Below are positions 1,762 to 63,022 of a DNA stretch of 64,000 bases, piece by piece. Positions within the stretch are counted from its first letter, which is position 1; each line of letters opens with the position of its first letter. The notes beneath the pieces are model-generated. The model saw only the letters and a program-made list of their open reading frames with translations. It searched no databases and was not told where the DNA came from. A program made the translations under genes and the position numbers. The stretch covers positions 680,396-744,395 of the forward strand of contig CAWFJJ010000024.1 in NCBI GenBank assembly GCA_963816185.1, read 5' to 3'. Source of the DNA: Thermoanaerobaculia bacterium (GTDB taxonomy: Bacteria; Acidobacteriota; Thermoanaerobaculia; UBA5066).

Positions 1762-4161
1762 TCAGGACGGAAACCCGACGCGCTTGATTAACGCTGCGAA
1801 GCGGGAGTCGGAACGGATCGGCTCCCAGCGCAGGTCCCGTTCGAGCCAGACGAGCCAATGGGTTCGCTCCTCGACTCCCTTTTCCAGCCAGGCGAAGGCC
1901 CGATCCTTGTCTCCGAGCGCCGCATGAACGAGGGCCACGCCGTAAGCGGTGACGTATTCCTTCTTCGACCGCGCCTCCAGGTTGGAGAGAACCTGGAGCG
2001 CTTCCCGGCGCTTGCCCATGACGCCGTAGACGTAGCCGATCGCCGCGACCGTCGGCACCCACTCCTTGAGCGGCCCGGTCGCCTGGTACTCCGCGATGGC
2101 CTGCTCGTAGAGCCCCTTCGCCTGATAGACCCGCCCGAGGAAGAGGTGCGCAGGCGGGTATTGGGGATTCATCTCGAGGGCCTTTCGCAGCTCCTCCGCC
2201 GCCCGGTCCTGCTCGTAGCTGTAGTGAAGGAGGAAGCCCATGTCCGACTCGATCGGGACGGAGAGGGGATCGAGCTCGTGCGCTCGCTTGATCTGGGCGC
2301 GTGCTTCGGGGAGGCGCCCGGTCGCCGTCAAGAGGTAGGCGTACCAGTCGTGTGCCGTCGCATAATTCGGATTCAGCTCGATGGCTCGCTGGAACTCGCG
2401 CTCGGCTCCGGGCCAGTCCCAATCGAAATAGAACTTTTCGTAGGCCAGGGAGGCGTGCGGCTCGGCGAGAGAGGCATCCAGCTCGAGGGCCTTCCCGGCG
2501 GCCTCCCGCGCCTTTGGAAAGACTTCCCGGGGCGCGACGAGACTCAAGTATCCGAGCTGCGTGTAGGAGTCGGCGATCCCCGAGTAGGCCACGGCGTAGG
2601 CAGGATCGACGTCCAGCGCCTGCTGGAAAAACCCGATTGCCTTCTTGAGGTTCTCGCCATCGCGCTTGTTCCAGAAGTACCGTCCCTTCACATAGGCCTC
2701 GAAGGCGGCCGGATCGACGCGCCTCGTCTTCGCGAGCTGGGATATTTCCGGTGGAGTCAGCTCGAGGCGGCCGGCGCGGGCGATCGCCTGCGCGATTTCA
2801 CTTTCCAGAGCGAGCACGTCGTGGAGGTCACGTTCGTACGTCTGAGCCCAGAGGTGTTTGTCCGACGCCGCCTCGATGAGCTGGGCCGTCACGCGGACCT
2901 TGCTGTCCGCCCGCGAGACCGATCCCTCAACGACGGCGTCGACGCCGAGCTCCCGTGCGATCTCGGGCAGCCGCTTTTTCGTGTCGCGGTACGACATGAC
3001 CGAGGTCCGGGAGGTGACGCGGAGCCCGCTGATCCGGGCGAGGTCGGCGATCAGCTCCTCCGTCATCCCGTCGGCGAAATATTCCTGGGTCGCATCGCCG
3101 GAAAGGTTCTGAAGAGGAAGAACCGCCAGCGATCGGATCGCGGTGCCTTTCCCTCGTGTGCCGAGGCGTCCGCGGAGACCGCCCACATCGAGGGCGAAAA
3201 GAAGCGCGGCGGCCAGGACGATTACACCCGCTGCGATGGCGGCGACTCGACCGCGACCCACCCTTGTGCCCACCATCGCCACGCCGGACATCTGAACCGC
3301 CGAAGCCGACGTCGACGCAATCTCGCGAAGCGCGTAGGTCAGATCGCGTGCCGACTGGAACCTCTCGTCGGGGCTCTTCTCCAGGCAACGCGTGATGACG
3401 CGCGCGAGCGCGAGAGGAATCGTCTTCCCTGATTCCGAAGGGTCCGGCGGCGATTCCTTGAGAATTGCCGCCATCGCATCGGCGGACGTCTTTCCCGCGA
3501 AAGCCCGCCTGCCGGTCACCATCTCGTAGAGCACGGATCCGAACGAGAAAATATCGCTCCGCGCATCCACAGGGAGCCCACGTACCTGCTCGGGAGACAT
3601 GTAGGCGGCGGAGCCCATCACGGTGCCGGGCTGCGTCTGCGACGCCGTGAGGACCGAGCTGCCCACCTCCTCCGGTGCGCCGGGCTGGAGCCTTGCCAGG
3701 CCGAAGTCGAGGATCTTCACCCGTCCGTCTTCGGTGAGGAAGACGTTCTCGGGCTTCAGGTCCCGGTGGACGATCCCCTGCGCGTGCGCCGCCGCGAGGC
3801 CATCGGCGATTGACACGGCGATTTCAACCGCCTTTCGCCAGGAGAGTGACTCCCGATCGAGCCGTCCGCGAAGCGTCTCACCTCGGAGCAGCTCGGTGAC
3901 GGAGTAGCACAGTCCGTCCTCGACCCCGAAATCGTGGATCGCGAGAATGTTGGGATGGGAGAGGGCTGCGACGGCCCGGGCCTCGCGCTCGAAGCGGCCC
4001 AAAGCGGCCGGGTCGGAAGCCAGGTGCTCCTGTAGCACCTTAATCGCGACCTCGCGGCCGAGACGTGTGTCCCGCGCGAGGTAGACGGCGCCCATGCCAC
4101 CCGAACCCAGATGCGAGAGGATCTCGTATGGCCCTAACCGGCTACCTTCTGAGAACGCCAT
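1762..4161 (-). CDS. Ser/Thr protein kinase with TM, TolB-like domain and TPR repeats
   Basis: [18 protein letters not shown] and DFG motifs; SLAVLPL...[11 protein letters not shown]; TPR repeats. Confidence 0.95.
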
Positions 4162-51717: not shown

Positions 51718-51795
51718 GTCTAACGATACGCGTTCAGCGGCGAGCGGGGGCGAGCGAAGCGAGCTACGCGAGTCCGCTGCAGCCGCGGGTTGAAC
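51718..51795 (-). other. attC site
   Basis: Minus strand GTTCAAC...TGCAGCGG...CCGCTGA...GTTAGAC imperfect palindrome between co-oriented genes. Confidence 0.88.
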
Positions 51796-51811
51796 CGCGC
51801 TGACGGTCAAC

Positions 51812-52231
51812 TCACGGTTGAATCTCCCACGGTACCCACGAGACCGGGACTCCGGCGCGAACCGTGTTGTGCACCTCAGCGAGGGTGTCGGTCTGCCGCA
51901 ACAGAGCGGCAATCTCGGCTTGTGACGCTGGTGACGAAACTCGAGCGCGATACGTTATCGCCGAGGCGGCGAGACCAACGCCCGCGAATTCCCCGCTGGC
52001 TTCCACCTCTACCGTGTCAACCGGAATCTTCAGCCGATCAGCCTCGCGGTAGATGTCGTTGCAGAAGCACGTCGCCAGGGCGAGCATCAGAAACTCACCG
52101 CCGTTCACTGCCGAGCCTCGACCGAGACTCTTTCCCGGGATTGTGACGTGCTGCATGCTTCCAGCGGTGCTGACCGAAACGTCGTGTGATGTACCCGTAT
52201 TCTTCACGAAGGCTGCGATCTGCACTCTCAA
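51812..52231 (-). CDS. OsmC/Ohr family protein (gene cassette)
   Basis: NGGEFLMLALATCFCND, EVHNT. Confidence 0.8.
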   Translation of the reverse strand: MRVQIAAFVKNTGTSHDVSVSTAGSMQHVTIPGKSLGRGSAVNGGEFLMLALATCFCNDIYREADRLKIPVDTVEVEASGEFAGVGLAASAITYRARVSSPASQAEIAALLRQTDTLAEVHNTVRAGVPVSWVPWEIQP

Positions 52232-52266
52232 CCTCCAGATCGGTAAGCGAAGCGGCCTAACGATAT

Positions 52267-52434
52267 CGTTTCAATGAAGACGAGAAAAGGGCTGTCCTCG
52301 CCGACGTGGTCACCGAAGAATCGGGCCACACACTTTAACGGTGCGTTTTCATGATTCAGGACGAGCGGGGAGAGGAGCTGGGACGAGGCGAGGTGCCGAC
52401 CTCTGCGCCGGGGCTTGACAGGAACCTTCATGGG
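52267..52434 (+). mobile_element. Internally deleted mini-IS1111 inside an attC remnant (52255-52443)
   Basis: Left end, a short tnp fragment and the right end match the IS at 53558-54997; flanked by GCCTAAC and GTTGGGC. Confidence 0.85.
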
Positions 52435-52449
52435 CAGTTGGGCCGCGCG

Positions 52450-52914
52450 TCACCCTCGTGCGACGGAGCCGCCTCGCCGCCACAGTGAAAGCCCTAGGCC
52501 AACGACCATGACGACGAACAGCAGCAGGTTCACGTGTGGCCCGACCGGCGCCCCCACGCGGGGCAGTGGAACGAAACCAAGAACCAACTGCCCGGCGAGG
52601 TAGTTCAACGCGAGGAGCGCGAACATCAAGGGCACCGCGTTTCGGTATCGAAGAAGGACGAGCCCGCACAGGAGACAGAAGAATAGCCGCCAGAGCGATC
52701 CTTGCGCGAAGACTGCCACCACCGTCTGAGCGACCGCGGGCGTGAACGAATCGAGTGGAATCCCATCCGCGTCCCTCGCCGTCGGGTACCCGTTGAGAAT
52801 AATGGCTAGGCTCTGAGCGCCCTTCATCGCGACTACCAGGCCAAAGAGCCAGAGCGCCAACCTAGAGCCCCGATACTCATTATCCAGACGCCGCGGTAGA
52901 AGCACGTCGAGCAT
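52450..52914 (-). CDS. Hypothetical membrane protein (gene cassette)
   Basis: GGAGG RBS, four TM segments; cassette ends GCGGCCTAAC / GTTGGGCCGC are complementary. Confidence 0.75.
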   Translation of the reverse strand: MLDVLLPRRLDNEYRGSRLALWLFGLVVAMKGAQSLAIILNGYPTARDADGIPLDSFTPAVAQTVVAVFAQGSLWRLFFCLLCGLVLLRYRNAVPLMFALLALNYLAGQLVLGFVPLPRVGAPVGPHVNLLLFVVMVVGLGLSLWRRGGSVARG

Positions 52915-52951
52915 GATCTGGCCTCCAGTGGTTCCGGTTACCCGGGAAGCG

Positions 52952-53009
52952 GCCTAACAATATCAAGCTCAGCGGCGAGCGTAGTGAGCCCGCTGCAGCG
53001 TTGTTAGGC
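52952..53009 (-). other. attC site (intact; matches the IS1111 target)
   Basis: GCCTAAC...GTTAGGC 58 bp palindrome; the upstream gene's TAA lies in R''. Confidence 0.92.
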
Positions 53010-53525
53010 GCCGCGAATCCACGGGAGAGTGCGCTTAGCAAAGGCGAGGCGTCCGAGCAGGAGATGAAAGACAAGGGATCCGAGGCAAAAACCACCAAAG
53101 ACGAGCGCCCCCACGGCGAGAACGAAAAGGACCTCGAGGACAATCGCGGTCACATGGAAGCCGAGGAGCAGCGAAACGCCGATCGCTAGCGCGAATGTTC
53201 CTGCCATGCCTTGGGCAAACCTACGGGGGCCAGGAGCCGGTGAGAGCGTGATGCGACCCGGCCCGGCCGCTGCGATCCGATTGTAGAGCGCATCGAACGG
53301 GTTCCAACGAGGGAAGAGCGCGCTCCACCAAAGGACCCCTCCGAGAGCCAGGAAGATCAACGGCGCCTTGAGGACGACAGCCACAAGAACGACCGAGGCG
53401 ACGAGCCGCGGCTGAAAAAGAAGTGCGGAGTACTGAACCGGGCAGATTGCTGCAGACGGCTCCTCAAACCCCTGCTGGAGAATGAAGTTGCGCTTGAGGC
53501 CGGCGACAGCAAAGGTCGGGTCCAT
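53004..53525 (-). CDS. DUF4395-like membrane protein (gene cassette)
   Basis: PRRFAQGM, GFCLG motifs; cassette ends GCGGCGCCTAA / GTTAGGCGCCGC are complementary. Confidence 0.78.
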   Translation of the reverse strand: MDPTFAVAGLKRNFILQQGFEEPSAAICPVQYSALLFQPRLVASVVLVAVVLKAPLIFLALGGVLWWSALFPRWNPFDALYNRIAAAGPGRITLSPAPGPRRFAQGMAGTFALAIGVSLLLGFHVTAIVLEVLFVLAVGALVFGGFCLGSLVFHLLLGRLAFAKRTLPWIRGA

Positions 53526-53676
53526 AGATAAGGCCTTCCAGCGGCGCCTAAGGATATCGTTTCAATGAAGACGAGAAAAGGGCTGTCCTCGCCGACGTGG
53601 TCACCGAAGAATCGGGCCACAACGATTAACGGGGTCAACCTCCGAGGAGGTGCCCCAAGCAAGGGAGGACAGCCCG

Positions 53677-54780
53677 ATGAAATCTTATGTGGGACTGGAC
53701 GTTCACAGCAAGTCGAGCGTTTTCATGATTCAGAACGAGCGGGGAGAGGAGCTGGGACGAGGCGAGGTGCCGACCTCTGTGGAAGGGTTTTCCTCGTTGC
53801 GGCTACGTTTCAAGCTTCGCGCCTCGACGCTGGTGGCTCTCGAATCGGGGACGATGGCGTTTTTTGCGGCGCGAAAGCTTAGTGAGCTGGGGCTTTCACC
53901 CGTCGTGGTGGATGCGCGAGAGGTCAGGATCAAAGCCCATCGGCCCCGGCAGAAAAGCGACACGAGAGACGCCGTTGAACTGTGCGAAGGCCTGCGGCGT
54001 GGAATCTACCGGTCGATCGTGCATGTGCCGCCGGAGAAGATCGAGCACCTTAGAAATACCCTCTCGAGGCGCCGCCATTTCGTGCGTCTCGGGACGGCGC
54101 AGATCAACGCGGCGAAAAAGATGCTCCGGAGCGCGGGGCTCTCCGAGCTCAGCCGCCAGCATCTCGGGACCCTTCGCGCGTGGCAGCGCCTTCTTGGGGC
54201 CCTGGTTCCACATCCGCAGGTAAGGAGCTACGTCGAGCTTCACCACCGCGCCTGGCAGACTGCCCTCGAGCAGAAGAACGCGTGCGAGAAGAGCCTCGAA
54301 AGCCAGCACGCCGCCTTCGGCGAAGACCTCGAGAGACTCAAAACCGTTCCAGGAGTCGGGGAGATCGTGGCGCTGACGGCAATCGCTGTCTTCTCAGACG
54401 CCACGCGCTTTCCGACCGCCAAGCATGCGGCGAGCTACGCGGGGCTCGTCCCGCAAACCTACCAGTCGGGCGAAACGAACCGCCAGGGCCACATCACCAG
54501 GACGGGTTCGCCGGAGCTGCGGGCCATGCTCGTGCAGGCGGCTCACACGGCCAGGCGGCAAAGCAGCCCACTGAATCCGTTTCTGAGAACTCTCACGTTG
54601 CGCCTGGGGACACGCCGCGCTGTCACGGCCGTGGCGCATCGTCTCTGTCGGGTTCTTTACGCGATGCTTCGAGACAAGACGAGCTTTGATCGATCGATGC
54701 TGAAAGCCCACGAGCCGCGCACGGCGGTAAAGGATGCCCGGATCTATCGACTGAAACCTCAAGCGGCAAAGAGCCGCTGA
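53677..54780 (+). CDS. IS110/IS1111 DEDD transposase
   Basis: VGLDVH, ALES, KSDTRDA, TVPGVG, YAGLVP..QSG, AVAHRL. Confidence 0.95.
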   Translation: MKSYVGLDVHSKSSVFMIQNERGEELGRGEVPTSVEGFSSLRLRFKLRASTLVALESGTMAFFAARKLSELGLSPVVVDAREVRIKAHRPRQKSDTRDAVELCEGLRRGIYRSIVHVPPEKIEHLRNTLSRRRHFVRLGTAQINAAKKMLRSAGLSELSRQHLGTLRAWQRLLGALVPHPQVRSYVELHHRAWQTALEQKNACEKSLESQHAAFGEDLERLKTVPGVGEIVALTAIAVFSDATRFPTAKHAASYAGLVPQTYQSGETNRQGHITRTGSPELRAMLVQAAHTARRQSSPLNPFLRTLTLRLGTRRAVTAVAHRLCRVLYAMLRDKTSFDRSMLKAHEPRTAVKDARIYRLKPQAAKSR

Positions 54781-54975
54781 AGACGAAGAAAGGAAAAGCA
54801 CGCCGCAAATCTTGCCGAGAATCGGGTGGATGACCCTGCTGCTGAGCATTGGGCCGCAGAGCCCGGGATATCGTTTGGGGCGCCATCCGCTGAAGTGATA
54901 CGTGGGGCTCTGACCCCGAATGGACGAGTGGCCGGCTGTTTCGTGCGGCGCAAGCAAGAAATTATTCAGCGAGGG
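54781..54975 (+). ncRNA. Candidate bridge/seekRNA of the IS1111 element
   Basis: About 200 nt 3' non-coding region; stem CAGAGCCC/GGGCTCTG encloses GGATATC and CCGCTGAAGTGATA, which match the target flanks. Confidence 0.7.
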
Positions 54976-54977
54976 GC

Positions 54978-54997
54978 TTGACAGGAATCTTCATGGG
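54978..54997 (+). promoter_or_regulatory. -35 half of the IS circle-junction promoter
   Basis: TTGACA at 54978; joining the IS ends places TTCAAT exactly 17 bp downstream. Confidence 0.7.
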
Positions 54998-55096
54998 CAA
55001 GCTCAGCGGCGAGCGCAGCGAGCGAGATGGGATGAGAAGGCCGGTCTCCCCGGCGCAGTCGGAAAATTCGCTGCAGGAAGAAAACGGGCTTGAGGC

Positions 55097-55424
55097 TGCT
55101 CTGCTCCCCAATTTACTAGACAGGTGAAGATTGAAGTTTAAGTTCACGAAACTCCATGGGCGAAAGCATGCCGAGGGAAGAGTGGGGGGCGATGCGGTTG
55201 TAGTCGTCGATTCAGGCGGGGAGCTGCCGGATGACGGTTTCGGCGTCTGAAAGATCGGCGACCTGGGCGTAGTCATGCTTGATCGTGTTCACGAAGGCTT
55301 CGGCCATTCCGTTGGACTCGGGGCTGTAGGCCGGCGTCGTCAGTGGAAACTCCGCCATAACGGCTCGCCTTTCTGGATCCGATTCTGGACCCGGAAGTGT
55401 CTAGCCGAGATGGGGGGCAGAGCA
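55097..55424 (-). mobile_element. Internally deleted IS3-family (IS2-like) remnant
   Basis: TG...CA ends with IRs TGCTCTGCTCCCC / GGGGGGCAGAGCA; encodes SPESNGMAEAFV...DYN...PHSSLG with a stop. Confidence 0.8.
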
Positions 55425-55568
55425 ACGAGGCTCCCGGTCGGCTGAGAGAGTGACGAGCAGGAGCCCCGCGATGACGCCTAGTGCAAGGCCGACGATGAAC
55501 ACTGCGGCTGTTCGCGCGCGTTGGGTCACGAGCCGACCTCCCTCAATTACATGTGGAGTGGAAGGCAT
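55425..55568 (-). pseudogene. 5' part of a cassette gene (one TM) interrupted by the IS3 remnant
   Basis: ORF begins just after attC 55574 and runs into the IS end. Confidence 0.45.
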
Positions 55569-55573
55569 TCGCA

Positions 55574-55661
55574 GCCTAACGGGTGGCGCGTCAGCGGCGA
55601 GCAACGCGAGCGACCCGAGCGAAGCGAGGGACGGCGAGTCCGCTGCACGCGCATGTTAGGC
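55574..55661 (-). other. attC site
   Basis: GCCTAAC...TCAGCGG...CCGCTGCA...GTTAGGC. Confidence 0.88.
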
Positions 55662-55741
55662 GGCGGCTCAGAAAGCACCACAGACTCCATCCGGTGTGCT
55701 CAACACTCTGCCATTCACCAAGTCAACATCTACCCGAAGCC

Positions 55742-56614
55742 TCACCGCCGTCCGCCGCTCCGGGCCAGTTCGCACAGGGCCTCCGCCAGGAGCGCGTTGA
55801 AGGCCTCGGGCTGCTCGAGCATGAGGTAATGCCCCGCTCCCTTCATTATCGCCGCCTGGTAGCCGGGGGCATACTTGCGGTTGCCCTCCAAGTTGGTGGG
55901 AAACAGGTCGGAGCTGATGGCGCAGATGGGGGCCTTGATCTCGCGCAGCGCCGGCAGCGGGCTGTAGGCCATGCTGGAGCGGGCGACGGCCACGCTAATC
56001 TCCTGCGGCGCCGACAGCACCGTTTCCAGCACGCGCGCCTTGATGGGCTCGGGCGTGCTCGCTGAGAAAAGGTATTGCGACGTTATGGCGGTGGTCGTGG
56101 CCCGGTAGTCGGCCTGCAGCGCCGACAGGAACTTCTCCATCTCCTCGGCCGCGATCCTTCCCTCGAAGTCCACCCAGCTGTCCACCAACACCAGGCCGGC
56201 CACCCGGCCCGGCATGCGGCGCGCGGCCTCCAGGACCGCCGGCCCGCCAAGGGAGTGGCCGATGAGCACCACTCGCTTCAAGCCCAGCGCCTCGACCACC
56301 GACACCACGTCCTGGCCGAAAGCGGCCATCGTCCAGTCCTTGCGCCCGCGTCCGCTCTGGCCGTGGCCGGCCAGGTCGAGCGCGACGACGCGGTGCTTCG
56401 CGGCGAAGCGGGCCATCTGCCCGTCCCAGAAGCCCCGGTTGCAGCCCCCGCAGTGGACGAATACCAGGGCCGGATCGCCCTTGCCGGCCGCGTCATAGCG
56501 GATGAGGACCCCGTCGGGCGAGGTGGCGGTGCCGGAAACGGCCTCCTGGGAGCCGGCCCTGGCCGGCGGCGACAGTGCCACAAGGGCGATGACTAGGCCG
56601 AATGTGGTCTTCAT
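55742..56614 (-). CDS. Secreted alpha/beta hydrolase (gene cassette)
   Basis: Signal peptide, DLAGHG, GHSLGG, AGHY; AAGGAGG RBS. Confidence 0.9.
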   Translation of the reverse strand: MKTTFGLVIALVALSPPARAGSQEAVSGTATSPDGVLIRYDAAGKGDPALVFVHCGGCNRGFWDGQMARFAAKHRVVALDLAGHGQSGRGRKDWTMAAFGQDVVSVVEALGLKRVVLIGHSLGGPAVLEAARRMPGRVAGLVLVDSWVDFEGRIAAEEMEKFLSALQADYRATTTAITSQYLFSASTPEPIKARVLETVLSAPQEISVAVARSSMAYSPLPALREIKAPICAISSDLFPTNLEGNRKYAPGYQAAIMKGAGHYLMLEQPEAFNALLAEALCELARSGGRR

Positions 56615-56696
56615 CGAATCCTCCTTCGCCTCAGCGTGTCACCGCCGGAGGCAGCACTTCCCGAGGCTCGCGCACACCCACATCCGCGTCTGGTCC

Positions 56697-56753
56697 GCCT
56701 AACGATACCGCGTTCAGCGGCGAGCGCAGTGAGTCCGCAACGCGTTGTTAGGC
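56697..56753 (-). other. attC site
   Basis: GCCTAAC...TTCAGCGG...CCGC...GTTAGGC, 57 bp. Confidence 0.88.
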
Positions 56754-56759
56754 TGACTG

Positions 56760-57020
56760 CGGGTTCGGTCCAGGCACATGGGTTACACAGCAGTCCAGGC
56801 ACATGGGTGACACAGGGCAGAGTTCGGGCGGGAGGAGAAACGCCCGATGCCCTGGAAGGAGACGACACCCGTGGCCGAGAGGATGCAGAGCCTGGCGGAT
56901 TATCGAAGCGGGCTTTTCGCGGTGAGGTTTCTGGCCGAGCGGCACGGCGTGAGCCGCAAGACGCTCTACAAGTGGATCGAGAGATTCGAGGCGGAGGGTA
57001 CCTATGTGCCCGACCGTTCA
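56760..57020 (+). mobile_element. Internally deleted mini-IS481
   Basis: Left end and first ~50 codons match 60370 onward; joined near 56998 to the right end ACCTATGTGCCCGACC seen at 58392. Confidence 0.85.
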
Positions 57021-57039
57021 TCTGGAGTAGGATTACGAC

Positions 57040-57276
57040 ATGACGGACGCCGCCGTACGCCTGCGCGAGACCTTGCTGACGTTGCCCGAGGAAGACCGTG
57101 CGTGGCTGGCGGCAGAGCTGGCCGCAAGCCTTGACGGACCGCCGGACGCGGACGCGGCCGAGGCGTGGGATGCCGAGGTGCAGGGGCGGATAGCGGAAGT
57201 TAAGGCGGGGAAGGCGAAGCTGGTGAGCTGGGCCGAGGTGAGTGAACGCCTCGAGGGCCGGCTGAAGAAGCCTTGA
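57040..57276 (+). CDS. Addiction-module antitoxin
   Basis: LTLPEEDRAWLA...AWDAEVQGRI...LVSW pattern. Confidence 0.85.
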   Translation: MTDAAVRLRETLLTLPEEDRAWLAAELAASLDGPPDADAAEAWDAEVQGRIAEVKAGKAKLVSWAEVSERLEGRLKKP

Positions 57277-57590
57277 CGCGCCGAATTCGCGTGCACCCGG
57301 CCGCCGCTGAAGAGGCTGAGGCCGCGGTTGCGTGGTACGAGCACGAACGCGAAGGGCTTGGCCGAGCGCTGAAGGACGATTTCGACGCTGCCGCAGCACG
57401 ACTGGCTTCTGGCCTGGAAGATGGAATGCCCGCGCGAGGACGAGCCGCCGCGAGTGGCGCGCGACGACTGGTTCTGGGCCGATTCCATTACGACGTCGTA
57501 TTCCTGCTTGAAGGGACCGATGTGACGATCGTGGCCTATGCGCACCACGCGCGGCGTCCAGGCTACTGGCGCGATCGATTGCCCACCTAA
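57273..57590 (+). CDS. RelE/ParE family toxin
   Basis: HPAAAEE..WYE..GLG, RFHY, HHARRPGYW; overlaps the antitoxin. Confidence 0.88.
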   Translation: MTRRIRVHPAAAEEAEAAVAWYEHEREGLGRALKDDFDAAAARLASGLEDGMPARGRAAASGARRLVLGRFHYDVVFLLEGTDVTIVAYAHHARRPGYWRDRLPT

Positions 57591-57596
57591 GGATAT

Positions 57597-58414
57597 CGTT
57601 TCAATGAAGACGAGAAAAGGGCTGTCCTCGCCGACGTGGTCACCGAAGAATCGGGCCACACAGTTTAACGGGGTCAACCTCCGAGGAGGTGCCCCAAGCA
57701 AGGGAGGACAGCCCGATGAAATCTTATGTGGGACTGGACGTTCACAGCAAGTCGAGCGTTTTCATGATTCAGAACGAGCGGGGAGAGGAGCTGGGACGAG
57801 GCGAGGTGCCGACCTCTGTGGAAGGGTTTTCCTCGTTGCGGCTACGTTTCAAGCTTCGCGCCTCGACGCTGGTGGCTCTCGAATCGGGGACGATGGCGTT
57901 TTTTGCGGCGCGAAAGCTCAGTGAGCTGGGGCTTTCGCCTGTCGTGGTGGATGCGCGAGAGGTCAGGATCAAAGCCCATCGGCCCCGGCAGAAAAGCGAC
58001 ACGAGAGACGCCGTTGAACTGTGCGAAGGCCTGCGGCGTGGAATCTACCGGGGCCACTTCGAGGTCAGGCGCGTCAGCCGCAACGGCGGGATCCGCTGGA
58101 AGACGGGCTGGCTCAGCGTCAGCCACCCGCTGATCGACGAGTACGTCGGGCTCGAGGAGGTCGACGACGGCATCTGGAACCTGTACTTCGGTTCGCTGCT
58201 GCTGGGCCGCTTCGACGAGCGCGACAAGACACTCTATGCAGCCTTTTATGAACACCGGCCTTGGCACCGCGGCGGCCGCACTGGCCGCGGCGCTGAAGGC
58301 TCAACGCAAGAAGATTTCCGCGATCTCCACAGCGCGACGGCGACGAGGTAACTGTTGATAAGTGTTACCCATGTGCCTGGACCAAAGTGTTACCTATGTG
58401 CCCGACCATTCACA
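57597..58414 (+). mobile_element. Chimeric remnant: IS1111 left part fused to IS481 right part
   Basis: 57597-58050 matches 53558 onward; 58051-58351 matches 61412-61713; ends with IS481 repeats and ...TTCACA. Confidence 0.85.
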
Positions 58415-58449
58415 TACGGGCTTCGCTCTTTCCGTACGTGGCCACCTAG

Positions 58450-59810
58450 TAGACCGCATCGGGTTTTCTTGGACAGGTGATAAGACATCTGGTGTCCAAG
58501 GAGGTTCGTATGCGGAGGCGATTCAAGGGGGCCTCGGTGGACGCGACCGAAGCCGGAGGCGAGGTGGCGGCCACTGAGACCGGCGACGGACCGGAGAGGT
58601 GGACCTCGGGGCGGAAGGCCGACGTGGTCTTGCGGCTGCTGCGAGGCGAGGACGTGGCGACGGTGTCACGAGAGATCGGCGTGCCGGCCCACCAACTCGA
58701 GGAATGGCGGCGTGTTTTCGTCGAGGGCGGCAAGGGATACCTCAGGAGCCGGGGAGAGCCTGACCAGGAGCGCGAGCTGACGCGCGCCCGCGCCAAAGTG
58801 GGCGAACTGATGATGGAGTTGGAGCTGGCCGAGGGGCTCCTGAAAAAAAGGGGCTTCGGGGACGACCTGAAGAAGCTCGGACGATGAAAGACGAGGTCAG
58901 CCCGGCCACGGGACGCCGGTATCCCTTCACGATGATCTGCAGCGTCTATCGCCTGGCCCGCTCGAGCGGTTACGCAGCCGCAAATGGGCGGGATGTCGAC
59001 GCGGTGAACGTGAGGCCGGGCCCGCGGCCGAAGGTTTCTGACGAAGAGCTTCTGCAGTTGATCCGCAGCGAGATCGAAAGCTGCCCCTTTGTTGGGGAAG
59101 GCCACCGCAAGGTGCATTGCCGCCTCAATAAGCGTGGAACCGTCGTGGGCAGGGGCCGGATCCTTCGTCTGATGCGCCAGGACCGGCTGCTCGTGCCCCA
59201 GAGAACGCGCCGAGTCCACGGCAACGCGGCTCACGATGGAACGATCGTAACGAACAGATCGAACCAGATGTGGGGCACGGACGGGACGCGTTTCTACACA
59301 CGCCGGGATGGCTGGTGCTGGTTCTTTGGCGCGGTCGACCACGCCTCGGTCAAGGTCGTCGGCCACCACGTGGCCAAGATCGGCGATCGCTTCGCGGCGC
59401 TCGAGCCCATCAAGCAGGGCATCGCCGAGAACTTCGGCGGCTACGCCGGTGCCATCGCCGCCGGGCTGAAGCTGCGGTTGGACTGGGGCACTCAGTACAC
59501 ATCGCACGTTTTTGAAGGCGAGACGCGCTGGCTCGGAATCGAGCTGTCCCACTCCTTCGTCGCCGAGCCCCAGTGCAACGGCGTGGCCGAGCGCTTCATG
59601 CGAACGGTGAAAGAGGAATGTCTTTGGCTCTTCGACTTCGAAGACCTCGAGCAGGCGCGGGCCCAGATCGCCGAATTCATCGATCTTTACAACCACGAGT
59701 GGCTCATCGAGCGCCTCGGCTACCGGACACCGGCCGTCGCGCATCGAGAGCTGCTCCAGGAGGCGGCGTGATTAGCGCCGTTAACTGTCCAGGAAATCGG
59801 GTGCGGTACA
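58450..59810 (+). mobile_element. IS3-family element (orfA 58510-58887, orfB 58884-59771)
   Basis: IRs TAGACCGCATCGGG / TCGGGTGCGGTACA, CTAG duplication, A7G slippery site at 58843, DDE (WGTD, D.GTQY, NGVAERF). Confidence 0.9.
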
Positions 59811-60260
59811 CTAGCGACCTCGCGCGAAGCTCCTCATGAGAAACGAATACAGGGCGCACCCCACGCCGAGGATGATGGAGTACTGGATGGAAGCGAGAAT
59901 CCTGGCAGGGGTATGGGCCGGCTGATTGGTCCGAAGAAGCACGGCCAGCGAAGCTGCGCCCACTCCGATCATGCAAAGAAGAACGGACAGCCACAACCGA
60001 GCTGAGGGATTCTTCGTGACCGCTCCAGCGACGAGAGAAGACGGAAGATAGAAGAAGAGCCAGATCGCTAAGGCGAACGCAACGCTGAATGCGAGCACGC
60101 CGCCTGCGCTGAGCGCCGCCTCGCGATTGCCCCTAGAGAGAGCGCCCAGGACCACAGGAGAGAGAAAGGCCGCCATGAGGCCTGCAATCGCGGCGACAAC
60201 TAGGCACCCGGCGCCGATGTGAGCCAAGGCCTCCCTACGAAACACCGTGTCATCAGCCAT
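59811..60260 (-). CDS. Hypothetical membrane protein (gene cassette)
   Basis: Four TM segments; starts 17 bp after attC 60277. Confidence 0.7.
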   Translation of the reverse strand: MADDTVFRREALAHIGAGCLVVAAIAGLMAAFLSPVVLGALSRGNREAALSAGGVLAFSVAFALAIWLFFYLPSSLVAGAVTKNPSARLWLSVLLCMIGVGAASLAVLLRTNQPAHTPARILASIQYSIILGVGCALYSFLMRSFARGR

Positions 60261-60276
60261 GGCTGTGCATTCGTGA

Positions 60277-60364
60277 ACCTAACGATACCGAGCTCAGCGG
60301 CGAGCCGCAATGCCGGAAGAAACGCCAAGACGGCACCCGAGTCCGCTGCAGCGCGTTGTTAGGC
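60277..60364 (-). other. attC site
   Basis: ACCTAAC...CTCAGCGG...CCGCTGCA...GTTAGGC, 88 bp. Confidence 0.9.
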
Positions 60365-60369
60365 CCGGC

Positions 60370-63022
<2,653 letters not shown>

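Follow-up and report, generated by a model that had tools for sequence, protein, structure and literature searches.

The locus described here raises the question of how an insertion sequence (IS) finds its place within the attC sites of integron cassettes. The window, by which we mean the whole analyzed stretch of 64,000 nucleotides, comes from a Thermoanaerobaculia bacterium (GenBank assembly GCA_963816185.1, contig CAWFJJ010000024.1, positions 680,396 to 744,395) and forms the end of contig C24 in an assembly of 30 contigs and 5.09 Mb. It carries a complete IS of the IS1111 family, which interrupts an attC site and whose features are collected in Table 1. A preliminary description of the window had proposed that the 3' non-coding region of this element encodes a guide RNA directed against attC. 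From the comparison of the element with its relatives we conclude that it is very probably a recently active IS1111-type IS, whose 3' non-coding region would encode a bridge-type seekRNA with guides directed against one arm of attC in the integrons of this lineage.

Probable guide segments in the 3' RNA

For the analysis of the RNA we used an alignment (A2) of 22 distinct elements, the window element and 21 relatives, over a 132-nt stretch ending with the conserved motif GACCCCGAAUGGAC. The fold was obtained with RNAalifold, and pairs were counted against shuffles and against slid partners. The resulting model with four stems (P1 to P4) is paired in 96.5% of the cells of the 22 sequences and contains 46 double-changed cells compared with 10.9 in shuffles. 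None of 500 shuffles reached 46, and sliding the partners by 1-3 columns lowered the pairing to 31-56%. Stem P4 (GGGG at 54904-54907 with CCCC at 54914-54917) is near-invariant and hence uninformative on covariation. The covariation in the aligned sequences supports a structure in which P1 and P2 close a loop containing a first guide segment (T), hairpin P3 and a second guide segment (B). A covariance model of the RNA (R1) matched the window at 54816-54945 with 113 bits. A scan of 52000-56000 against Rfam 15 at E≤1 found no seekRNA or bridge RNA family and gave a chance match to asX2 well below threshold; a promoter scan showed nothing promoter-like upstream of the RNA. A terminator-like match at 54849-54866 was set aside, as it consists of P3 followed by B.

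The two guide segments match the flanks of the insertion. Across elements, T reverse-complements the right flank over its first 9-10 nt, and the sequence of B equals the final 5-6 nt on the left side of the insertion plus the core CG or TG. In the window, GGATATCGTTT at 54866-54876 is identical over 11 nt to the left junction at 53553-53563 (GGATAT + CGTTT), and T pairs with positions 2-13 of the right flank except for one mismatch, A54848 opposite the third flank base. The matches were scored in a fixed register for 21 elements with both flanks (T out of 10, B out of 6). On the own flank T reached 7.57 and B 5.10. Set against 358 flanks that clearly differ from the own one, T dropped to 4.28, and B dropped to 2.97 against 362 others; values of at least 8 for T and at least 5 for B were found in 14 and 17 of the 21 elements. 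When the flank assignments were permuted, none of 10000 permutations attained the observed sum of 266 (mean 166.8, maximum 203). As a held-out set we used 11 loci which had been found by R1, were absent from model building and were aligned to the model (A3). T put the own flank first in six of the eight loci with a right flank (L063 and L025 failed), and B put it first or tied in five of the six with a left flank. The failing locus L046 has two ends which resemble different element types.

The matching can be followed most closely in a subgroup from Thermoanaerobaculia and Acidobacteriota, which consists of the window element, L017-L020, L043, L050 and L032, the last of which gave no flanks. 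The six copies in the own genome and L017-L020, L043 and L050 are all located at GATAY/CRNGYTCAGCGG, the slash marking the insertion point. In L017 (two sites) a T segment with ...GAGCUU stands with the right flank CAAGCTCAGC (CAAGCT), in L018 ...GAACUC with CGAGTTCAGC (CGAGTT), in L019 ...GAACGC with CGCGTTCAGC (CGCGTT), and in L020 and L050 ...GAGCGC with CGCGCTCAGC (CGCGCT). B shifts from GAUAU to GAUAC (to GGGAUACCGUUU) in precisely the two elements that have GATAC on the left, L020 and L050. Within the attC subgroup, as far as these sequences reach, T tracks the attC variants base for base. When R1 was applied to 60 relatives, it matched 4 of 28 other genomes of the genus; the 8 genomes that represent further genera of the family and the 24 genomes of two additional families in the order gave no match. 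This patchy distribution fits a mobile element.

It could be argued that the protein alone picks the target, either as attC sequence or as a folded hairpin, and that the flank matches are by-products, for example of a shared GC-rich palindromic content. Many targets of the clade are indeed palindromic or hairpin-forming, the bottom strand of attC folds, and several elements match their flanks imperfectly. Against this, the matches hold the same two loop positions also where the targets are unrelated, and they follow the flanks base for base; none of the permutations attained the observed match, and T put the own flank first in six of eight held-out loci. The transposases of the subgroup are 85-95% identical, yet their T guides and targets differ. 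Experiments on four IS1111 members have also demonstrated that the RNA is required (PMC11187229, abstract and sections 9 and 10). We therefore regard recognition by the protein alone as very unlikely.

Two further groups of relatives bear on how targets change. L022 from Holophagales (57% protein identity; L022:1800-2030 and 3162-3420) is inserted in the middle of an attC site of the same family, at GTCTAAC...CAGCGGCGAGCGAAG/CGAGTCCGCTGCAACCCGGGTTAGGC. Its B segment CGAAGCG matches the left flank and its T matches the right flank partly (6 of 10). This looks like a second attC position targeted within this IS clade. Two tandem target loops were observed in L028 (3560-3880), L029, L037, L051 and L054, which are five loci from two genomes, and in L033 (3590-3857); in L028 and L033 the module aligned in A2 is not the one that matches the flanks. 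The complete module of the L028 type predicts a target of the type GAAAAC/CGGGCCAAC, and the added shorter module (T CAUCCCCCG, B CGAGCCG) matches the actual flanks GCGAGC/CGGGGGATG in all four parsed copies of genome G061. This suggests retargeting by duplication of a guide module in L028-type elements. We tentatively propose, at somewhat less than even probability, that the IS1111 elements of this environmental clade (from Acidobacteriota, 'Eisenbacteria', delta-proteobacterial and Binatia-type genomes) form a natural series of retargeting. In such a series attC would have been captured independently of the proteobacterial IS1111-attC group and at least twice (the R'-proximal arm by the window subgroup, the attC centre by L022), T would co-evolve with the attC variants of the host, and some members (the L028 type and L033) would retarget by module duplication and not by point change.

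The preliminary description had drawn a different geometry, in which an 8-bp stem of CAGAGCCC (54857-54864) and GGGCTCTG (54905-54912) encloses a left guide GGATATC, a small TGG-GGCG-CCA hairpin and a right guide CCGCTGAAGTGATA, with TTGGGC and TGGACG as tentative donor guides. All strings were found where it had placed them (GGATATC at 54866-54872, TTGGGC at 54849-54854, TGGACG at 54921-54926, CCGCTGAAGTGATA at 54887-54900). The two halves of the stem are perfectly complementary, the stem is present in the minimum-energy fold of the single sequence, GGATATC matches the left flank, and the reverse complement of the right segment has TATCA and TCAGCGG in common with the target. As a structure the stem did not hold: 72.6% of its cells are paired, shuffles give 72.7%, the observed pairing is attained by 343 of 500 of them, and only one double-changed cell occurs in the 22 sequences. 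Its 5' half forms P3 instead, with four compensatory changes from G-C to A-U. Single-sequence folds of the non-coding region were not better than those of shuffles (z 0.09, 96 of 200 as good; z -1.19, 30 of 200). The bases of the small hairpin are taken up by P2 and P1, two covarying stems of which they form the 3' strands.

The proposed right guide consists of three nucleotides of the covarying P1 3' strand followed by invariant scaffold. It is identical in five of five A2 rows of the subgroup, whose right flanks differ at three positions, and relatives with unrelated targets have similar conserved sequence (CCGCAGCGAAACA type) in these columns. A motif that stays constant under changing targets is the outcome which the preliminary description had itself named as refuting. 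The segment that follows the right flank is T, which lies 5' of the left guide. The order of a left guide followed by a right guide is moreover that of IS110 and not of IS1111, as given in sections 9 and 14 of PMC11187229. Taking these findings together, we consider the earlier geometry highly improbable, and its guide map is half wrong. The element, its boundaries, the attC target, the empty site and the left guide were right. GGATATC lies within B, becomes GGATACC in the two elements with the left flank GATAC, and the left match, which is above chance, is truly 11 nt long and sits at the family-wide position of the flank-matching segment. A 3'-encoded guide RNA aimed at the integron attC family is likewise supported by the covariation of T and B with the flanks, and guide, filled sites and an empty site (52952-53009) do occur in one locus.

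Of the two donor guides of that description, TTGGGC is the end of T plus P3 stem, and TGGACG lies in a motif largely conserved in relatives with differing ends. Donor guides were also sought by eye in 54890-54997 as stretches following the IS ends among relatives, and none is claimed. The motif GAAUGGACG resembles the left repeat AATGAAGACG minus 2 nt; it was dropped, being constant where the repeat varies in L039, L040, L045, L036, L044 and L047. Recognition of the ends is described as an unsettled question for IS1111 elements generally (PMC11187229, Discussion).

Family assignment, copies and probable activity of the element

The element shows the features of an IS1111 member, namely asymmetric extensions, subterminal repeats and a downstream non-coding region that is longer than the upstream one (217 nt and 119 nt relative to the transposase gene). 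The 7-nt left and 3-nt right extensions follow the rule given for IS1111 in the Introduction of PMC11187229. Upstream of the IS stands ...GCCTAAGGATAT, which ends with GGATAT, and downstream stands CAAGCTCAGCGGCGAGCG, which opens with CAAGCTCAGCGG. In the comparison of filled with empty sites the IS is the sole difference and no target duplication is present. One C may belong to the left IS end or to the right flank; no other ambiguity of the boundaries exists, and the limits 53558 and 54997 of the preliminary description were borne out by this comparison and by six copies with 99-100% identity. One genome per species was scanned, which gave 48 related loci; ATGAAG/CTTCAT repeats stand at the expected places in 33 of them, with extensions of 7 nt and 3 nt, and one relative, L018, has a left extension of 8 nt. 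Relatives with 52-63% protein identity have repeats of 13-15 bp (ATGAAGACGGGTTGC type), likewise with extensions of 7 nt and 3 nt, and each lineage among the related loci occupies a different target.

The transposase matches PF01548 (DEDD_Tnp_IS110; 9e-14, 52 bits, cut-off 29) and PF02371 (Transposase_20; 5.3e-24, 84.8 bits, cut-off 21.3). In an alignment of 25 homologues no variation was found at D8, D95, D98 and S264, and E56 and G265 are almost invariant; these residues (D8/E56/D95/D98 and S264-G265) are presumably catalytic, a role assigned from the motif as given in section 6 of PMC11187229 and by analogy with IS621. The motif GLVPQTYQSG corresponds to the pattern GL-P----S(t)G, which section 6 of PMC11187229 gives for IS1111 transposases. 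Together with the extensions and the subterminal repeats, the transposase domains support the earlier classification as an IS1111-type element. Environmental homologues are numerous: 1255 of 8000 scored candidate proteins matched at E≤1e-10. A search of 72,556 plasmids gave homologues with identities up to about 33%. The transposase of IS5075 aligns with residues 5-338, 91% of the length, at 24.6% identity, and the solved IS110-group proteins of IS621 and ISCro4 match the C-terminal third only (residues 211-341, E about 1e-8).

The own genome contains six full copies with 99-100% identity and intact reading frames and ends. All of them occupy attC-like sites, where position and orientation are constant, and carry T=GCTGAGCATT and B=GGATATCGTTT, followed by CAAGCTCAGCGG as right flank; all left flanks recovered read CTAAC/G-GATAT. 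R1 detected exactly six RNAs in this genome, each within an IS copy. The six near-identical intact copies indicate that, as judged from sequence, this variant was recently active and has recently spread.

The alternative that the element is a fossil in this genome, with a mismatched T (A54848) that no longer recognises its sites efficiently, finds some footing in the fact that T has the same mismatch to the own right flanks in all six copies, that at least two perfect empty targets (C29:452112 and C2:10055) are unoccupied, that a truncated copy and remnants (Table 1) indicate decay, and that DNA contigs of two sequencing runs show neither the empty-site form nor a circle junction. The last point says little, as contigs lose rare forms, and the truncated copy and remnants have to be set against six intact and nearly identical copies. 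A mismatch at the same position is tolerated in L043, where it likewise stands opposite the third base of the right flank at two sites. The six sites of the window element and the two of L043 together hint at a tolerance at this base. We consider a fossil unlikely.

Traces of the element were also found in environmental libraries. Words sampled from the IS are present in metagenome runs from soil; the four runs that hold most of them belong to one study, which may include the source sample, and so are not independent. In the DNA runs X2 and X3, the two sequencing runs referred to above and both from the study of the possible source sample, no empty-site or circle-junction contig was present, which is no evidence, since contigs drop rare forms. 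Contigs from two RNA libraries of two studies cover 54735-54950 (X19) and 54809-54936 (X20, depth 30.4), and both carry the exchange A>T at 54848, which is the guide variant of L017. In X20 no cover was found over 53981-54690 with both IS ends covered; this too is not evidence. These contigs are a weak hint of expression of the seekRNA region.

Several points weigh against the reading of the element as a recently active IS1111 member with an attC-directed seekRNA. The ends and strand of the RNA-library contigs are unreadable, and DNA carry-over may explain them. T scored below 8 of 10 on the own flank in 7 of the 21 elements; weak matches occur in L024, L026, L040, L044 and L059, and L024, L059 and the held-out L025 are poor. 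The mismatch of A54848 recurs at all six own right flanks unless a 1-nt bulge is allowed, and in the contiguous register the window T does not pair with the core C. No donor-binding segment was identified, and the minimum-energy fold of the single sequence favours the earlier 8-bp stem over P1-P3. The transposase has 367 aa compared with 330-350 aa quoted for IS1111. The subterminal repeat of the window subgroup, with 7 bp, stands at the lower limit of the range for IS1111, which is 11-13 bp in PMC11187229 and 7-17 bp in PMC11208160; we keep the assignment to IS1111 because relatives carry 13-15-bp repeats with identical extensions. Finally, R1 found no match at E≤1 in IS5075, and the likeness of the window RNA to characterised seekRNAs is therefore architectural and not one of sequence.

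attC sites, integron context and features of the window

Table 1. Positions of the element, its RNA and the associated attC sites in the window.
Feature	Position	Strand	Remark
Complete IS1111-family insertion sequence, 1440 bp	53558..54997	+	six full same-genome copies; filled and empty sites compared
Left half of interrupted attC: GCCTAAG (R''-type box), then GATAT as left target	53546..53557	+	
Left terminal extension, 7 nt, CGTTTCA	53558..53564	+	opening CG = core in common with right flank in relatives
Left subterminal inverted repeat ATGAAGA	53565..53571	+	
Transposase gene, 367 aa + stop	53677..54780	+	DEDD/RuvC-like N-terminal domain, IS110-type C-terminal domain
Stem P1, 5' strand CGGGUGG	54823..54829	+	pairs with 54883-54889; compensatory changes in 5 of 6 counted pairs
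Stem P2, 5' strand CCCU	54834..54837	+	pairs with 54877-54880; C-G to U-A in 4 sequences
Guide T (GCUGCUGAGCAUU)	54838..54850	+	pairs with right flank
Hairpin P3 (GGGC-CGCAGA-GCCC), between guides T and B	54851..54864	+	54851-54854 with 54861-54864; G-C to A-U in 4 sequences
Guide B (GGGAUAUCGUUU)	54865..54876	+	same as top strand of left flank, core and first IS bases; could pair with bottom strand
3' strands of P2 (GGGG) and P1 (CCAUCCG)	54877..54889	+	includes small hairpin and first 3 nt of 'right guide' of the preliminary description
Conserved 3' scaffold: hairpin P4 + motif GACCCCGAAUGGACG..UGG	54890..54945	+	invariant or nearly invariant columns
TTGACA, -35-like, in right end	54978..54983	+	candidate part of junction promoter after circularisation
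Right subterminal inverted repeat TCTTCAT + GGG (3-nt right extension)	54988..54997	+	
Right half of interrupted attC; right target CAAGCTCAGCGGCGAGCG	54998..55015	+	
Empty attC of same family, 58 nt; contains AATATCAAGCTCAGCGG at 52959-52975	52952..53009	+	right target identical; left AATAT, not GATAT
Decayed left-end remnants of IS adjoining GCCTAACGATAT	52267..52405	+	
IS copy broken off after 455 bp, located in the left half of another attC (CCTAAGGATAT)	57597..58051	+	

The window contains five intact attC sites in 51718-60364, besides the interrupted ones, with lengths of 57-88 nt, GCCTAAC...GTTAGGC ends and the inner repeats CAGCGG and CCGC(T/A). The open reading frames (ORFs) between the sites are short and located on the minus strand (DUF4386, OsmC-like, DUF4395, alpha/beta hydrolase). 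The stop codon of the checked cassette ORF at 53004-53525 lies within GCCTAAC. As the DUF4395 ORF has its stop within GCCTAAC on the minus strand, the cassettes are read on this strand. In cassette orientation the IS is located between L' and R', 5 nt before GTTAGGC, and the transposase gene runs antisense to the cassettes. Further attC-like sites of this family form small clusters on contigs C2, C7, C24, C25, C28 and C29 of the own genome; the perfect empty targets named above are among the sites found there.

In the own assembly the best match to an integron integrase reached 74 bits with a cut-off of 265, and contig C24 ends where the window ends. An integrase above the curated cut-off is present in 20 of 29 genomes of the genus, the own genome counted. 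The congeneric genome G007 carries an intI gene (463.7 bits, PF13495 + PF00589) in the neighbourhood of short ORFs that share a strand. Two IS copies lie 2-6 kb from this gene, and so does an unoccupied attC of the family with the perfect target GTCTAACGATAT/CAAGCTCAGCGG. Since the same IS stands so close to an integrase there, the targets are real attC sites. At this locus (G007:C2:421657-428303, L081) intI and the cassette ORFs share one strand and the cassettes follow downstream of intI, a layout that differs from the divergent arrangement of class 1 integrons, and the IS occupies two of the first few attC sites.

How insertion would proceed can be outlined by analogy with described elements (PMC11187229, PMC11208160). 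Excision would yield a circle, whose junction brings TTGACA near TTCAAT and may thereby form a promoter. When the ends are joined in a constructed junction, TTGACA (54978-54983) stands 17 nt from TTCAAT (53561-53566), and the right ends of relatives retain TTGACA or TGGACA. Since a junction promoter has been described for IS1111 elements (PMC11187229, Discussion), we regard the pair, from its position, as a candidate for such a promoter. It would drive a transposase mRNA carrying the 3' RNA, which would be trimmed to the seekRNA and bound by the transposase, as is assumed by analogy with ISEc11, ISKpn4, ISPst6 and IS621. The serine recombinase would then swap strands at the core and join the circular IS between GATAT and CAAGC without duplication. 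The same flank pairings at both junctions are probably needed for excision, and a pairing at the left junction would agree with the extension of B into the initial IS bases CGTTT. Insertion would part R' from the remaining attC and should split the attC hairpin; because the IS sits between L' and R', the cassette is expected to be frozen.

Some neighbouring features deserve mention. The reading frame of the truncated IS copy (57597-58351 in the window) continues into unrelated sequence and gives an ORF of 211 aa, in which only the N-terminal PF01548 part is recognised; this copy is a product of rearrangement or deletion. One further left-end remnant of the IS was found at another place of the own genome. 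A 264-nt stretch (56737-56999) directly after an attC (GTTAGGC at 56747-56753) recurs with 93-95% identity at C25:611913, C25:606553, C24:335401 and C24:740743, three of which adjoin IS copies or remnants. A minus-strand ORF of 262 aa which overlaps it has no Pfam family, and the stretch may be a repeated cassette or another mobile unit. A second mobile element after AGCGAG (GATGGGATGAGAAGGCCGG..., 54998-55078, four places in the genome) was considered and rejected; only about 80 nt are common, and the stretch is now read as an attC variant with a long centre. The long centre to the right of the IS (..AGCGAGCGAGATGGGATGAGAAGGCCGG..) recurs at three attC-like sites (C2:10049, C7:292, C24:336987) and resembles the target of the delta-proteobacterial L028-type elements (..GAGCGCAGCGAGC/CGGGGGATGAG..). 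Beyond the last attC, at 60457-62767 near the contig end, an IS481-like transposase of 418 aa (HTH_32, rve, LZ_Tnp_IS481) and an IS3-like pair (HTH_21; rve) are encoded. These genes probably explain the break of the assembly and the fact that no integrase was seen.

Comparison with known RNA-guided elements

IS1111 elements that target attC were reportedly described by Tetu and Holmes in 2008 and by Post and Hall in 2009. RNA guidance of the attC-targeting members ISKpn4 and ISPst6 was shown experimentally in 2024, and ISPa25 was examined by sequence (PMC11187229). Judged by their descriptions, these three share with the window element the IS1111 anatomy, a guide in the 3' non-coding region, two short target matches in the same order, and one fixed attC position and orientation antisense to the cassette genes. 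They differ in that the host of the window element is a soil member of the Acidobacteriota (Thermoanaerobaculia-type) and not of the Proteobacteria, and in that its nearest relatives (52-63% identity) target non-attC, often palindromic, sequences. Because of these relatives, attC targeting was probably gained separately in the window lineage. The known IS1111-attC group (ISPa21/ISPst6 clade) inserts near the 5' end of attC according to PMC3001079, and the window element, set beside this clade as described, inserts in the R'-proximal arm, apparently another position. This different insertion point, the identity of at most about 33% to plasmid homologues and the closer relatives in non-attC targets speak indirectly against a place of the element in that clade, and they make a capture of attC independent of the known group likely, if not proven, as far as sequence comparison can tell.

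The likeness to IS5075/IS4321 comprises 7-nt and 3-nt extensions around subterminal repeats, a downstream non-coding region and the alignment of the transposase over 91%. The IS5075 copy of a plasmid locus (L065), read by eye, has a GAACCU/AGGUUC stem, AAAACGGAA, a GGCU...AGCC hairpin and TATTTTC. AAAACGGAA complements the right flank TTCCGTTTT and TATTTTC equals the target's top strand, which is the same layout as in the window. Differences are the 24.6% protein identity, 12-bp repeats compared with 7 bp in the window, and the target, which in IS5075/IS4321 is the terminal repeats of Tn21-type transposons.

The order of the guides also agrees with IS1111, in whose seekRNAs the guide pairing with the top strand stands 5' of the one pairing with the bottom strand, the reverse of IS110/IS621 (PMC11187229, sections 9 and 14; PMC11208160). 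With IS621, as described in PMC11208160, the window element shares pairings that both include the core and a single DEDD/Ser recombinase. It differs from IS621 in that its RNA is located 3' of the gene and not 5', in that the guide order in the loop is reversed, in that no separate donor-binding loop was found, and in longer subterminal repeats.

The locus and its relatives offer a natural data set on the target-pairing rules of IS1111, a branch far less studied than IS621, which covers a fold resolved by covariation, the exact places of the guides, a mismatch that is apparently tolerated and, at the core, a G.T wobble, and includes five close elements whose guides follow variants of one attC family. 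They also point to integrons outside the Proteobacteria that are colonised by RNA-guided IS elements, where splitting of attC should immobilise cassettes. The corrected guide map matters in practice, since the earlier one would have misdirected reprogramming experiments.

The principle, an IS1111 seekRNA with attC-targeting members, is already known, and the new element is a member from a different phylum. The titles and abstracts retrieved in literature searches mention neither the window element nor an attC-targeting IS1111 of Acidobacteriota, which is no proof of absence. A case of natural reprogramming is the pair ISEc11 and ISXne4, described in section 10 of PMC11187229 as close relatives that retain the seekRNA stems and differ in guides and target. 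Compared with that pair as presented there, the window series is finer: it comprises five variants with 85-95% protein identity, in which 1-3 guide bases follow the variants of one attC family.

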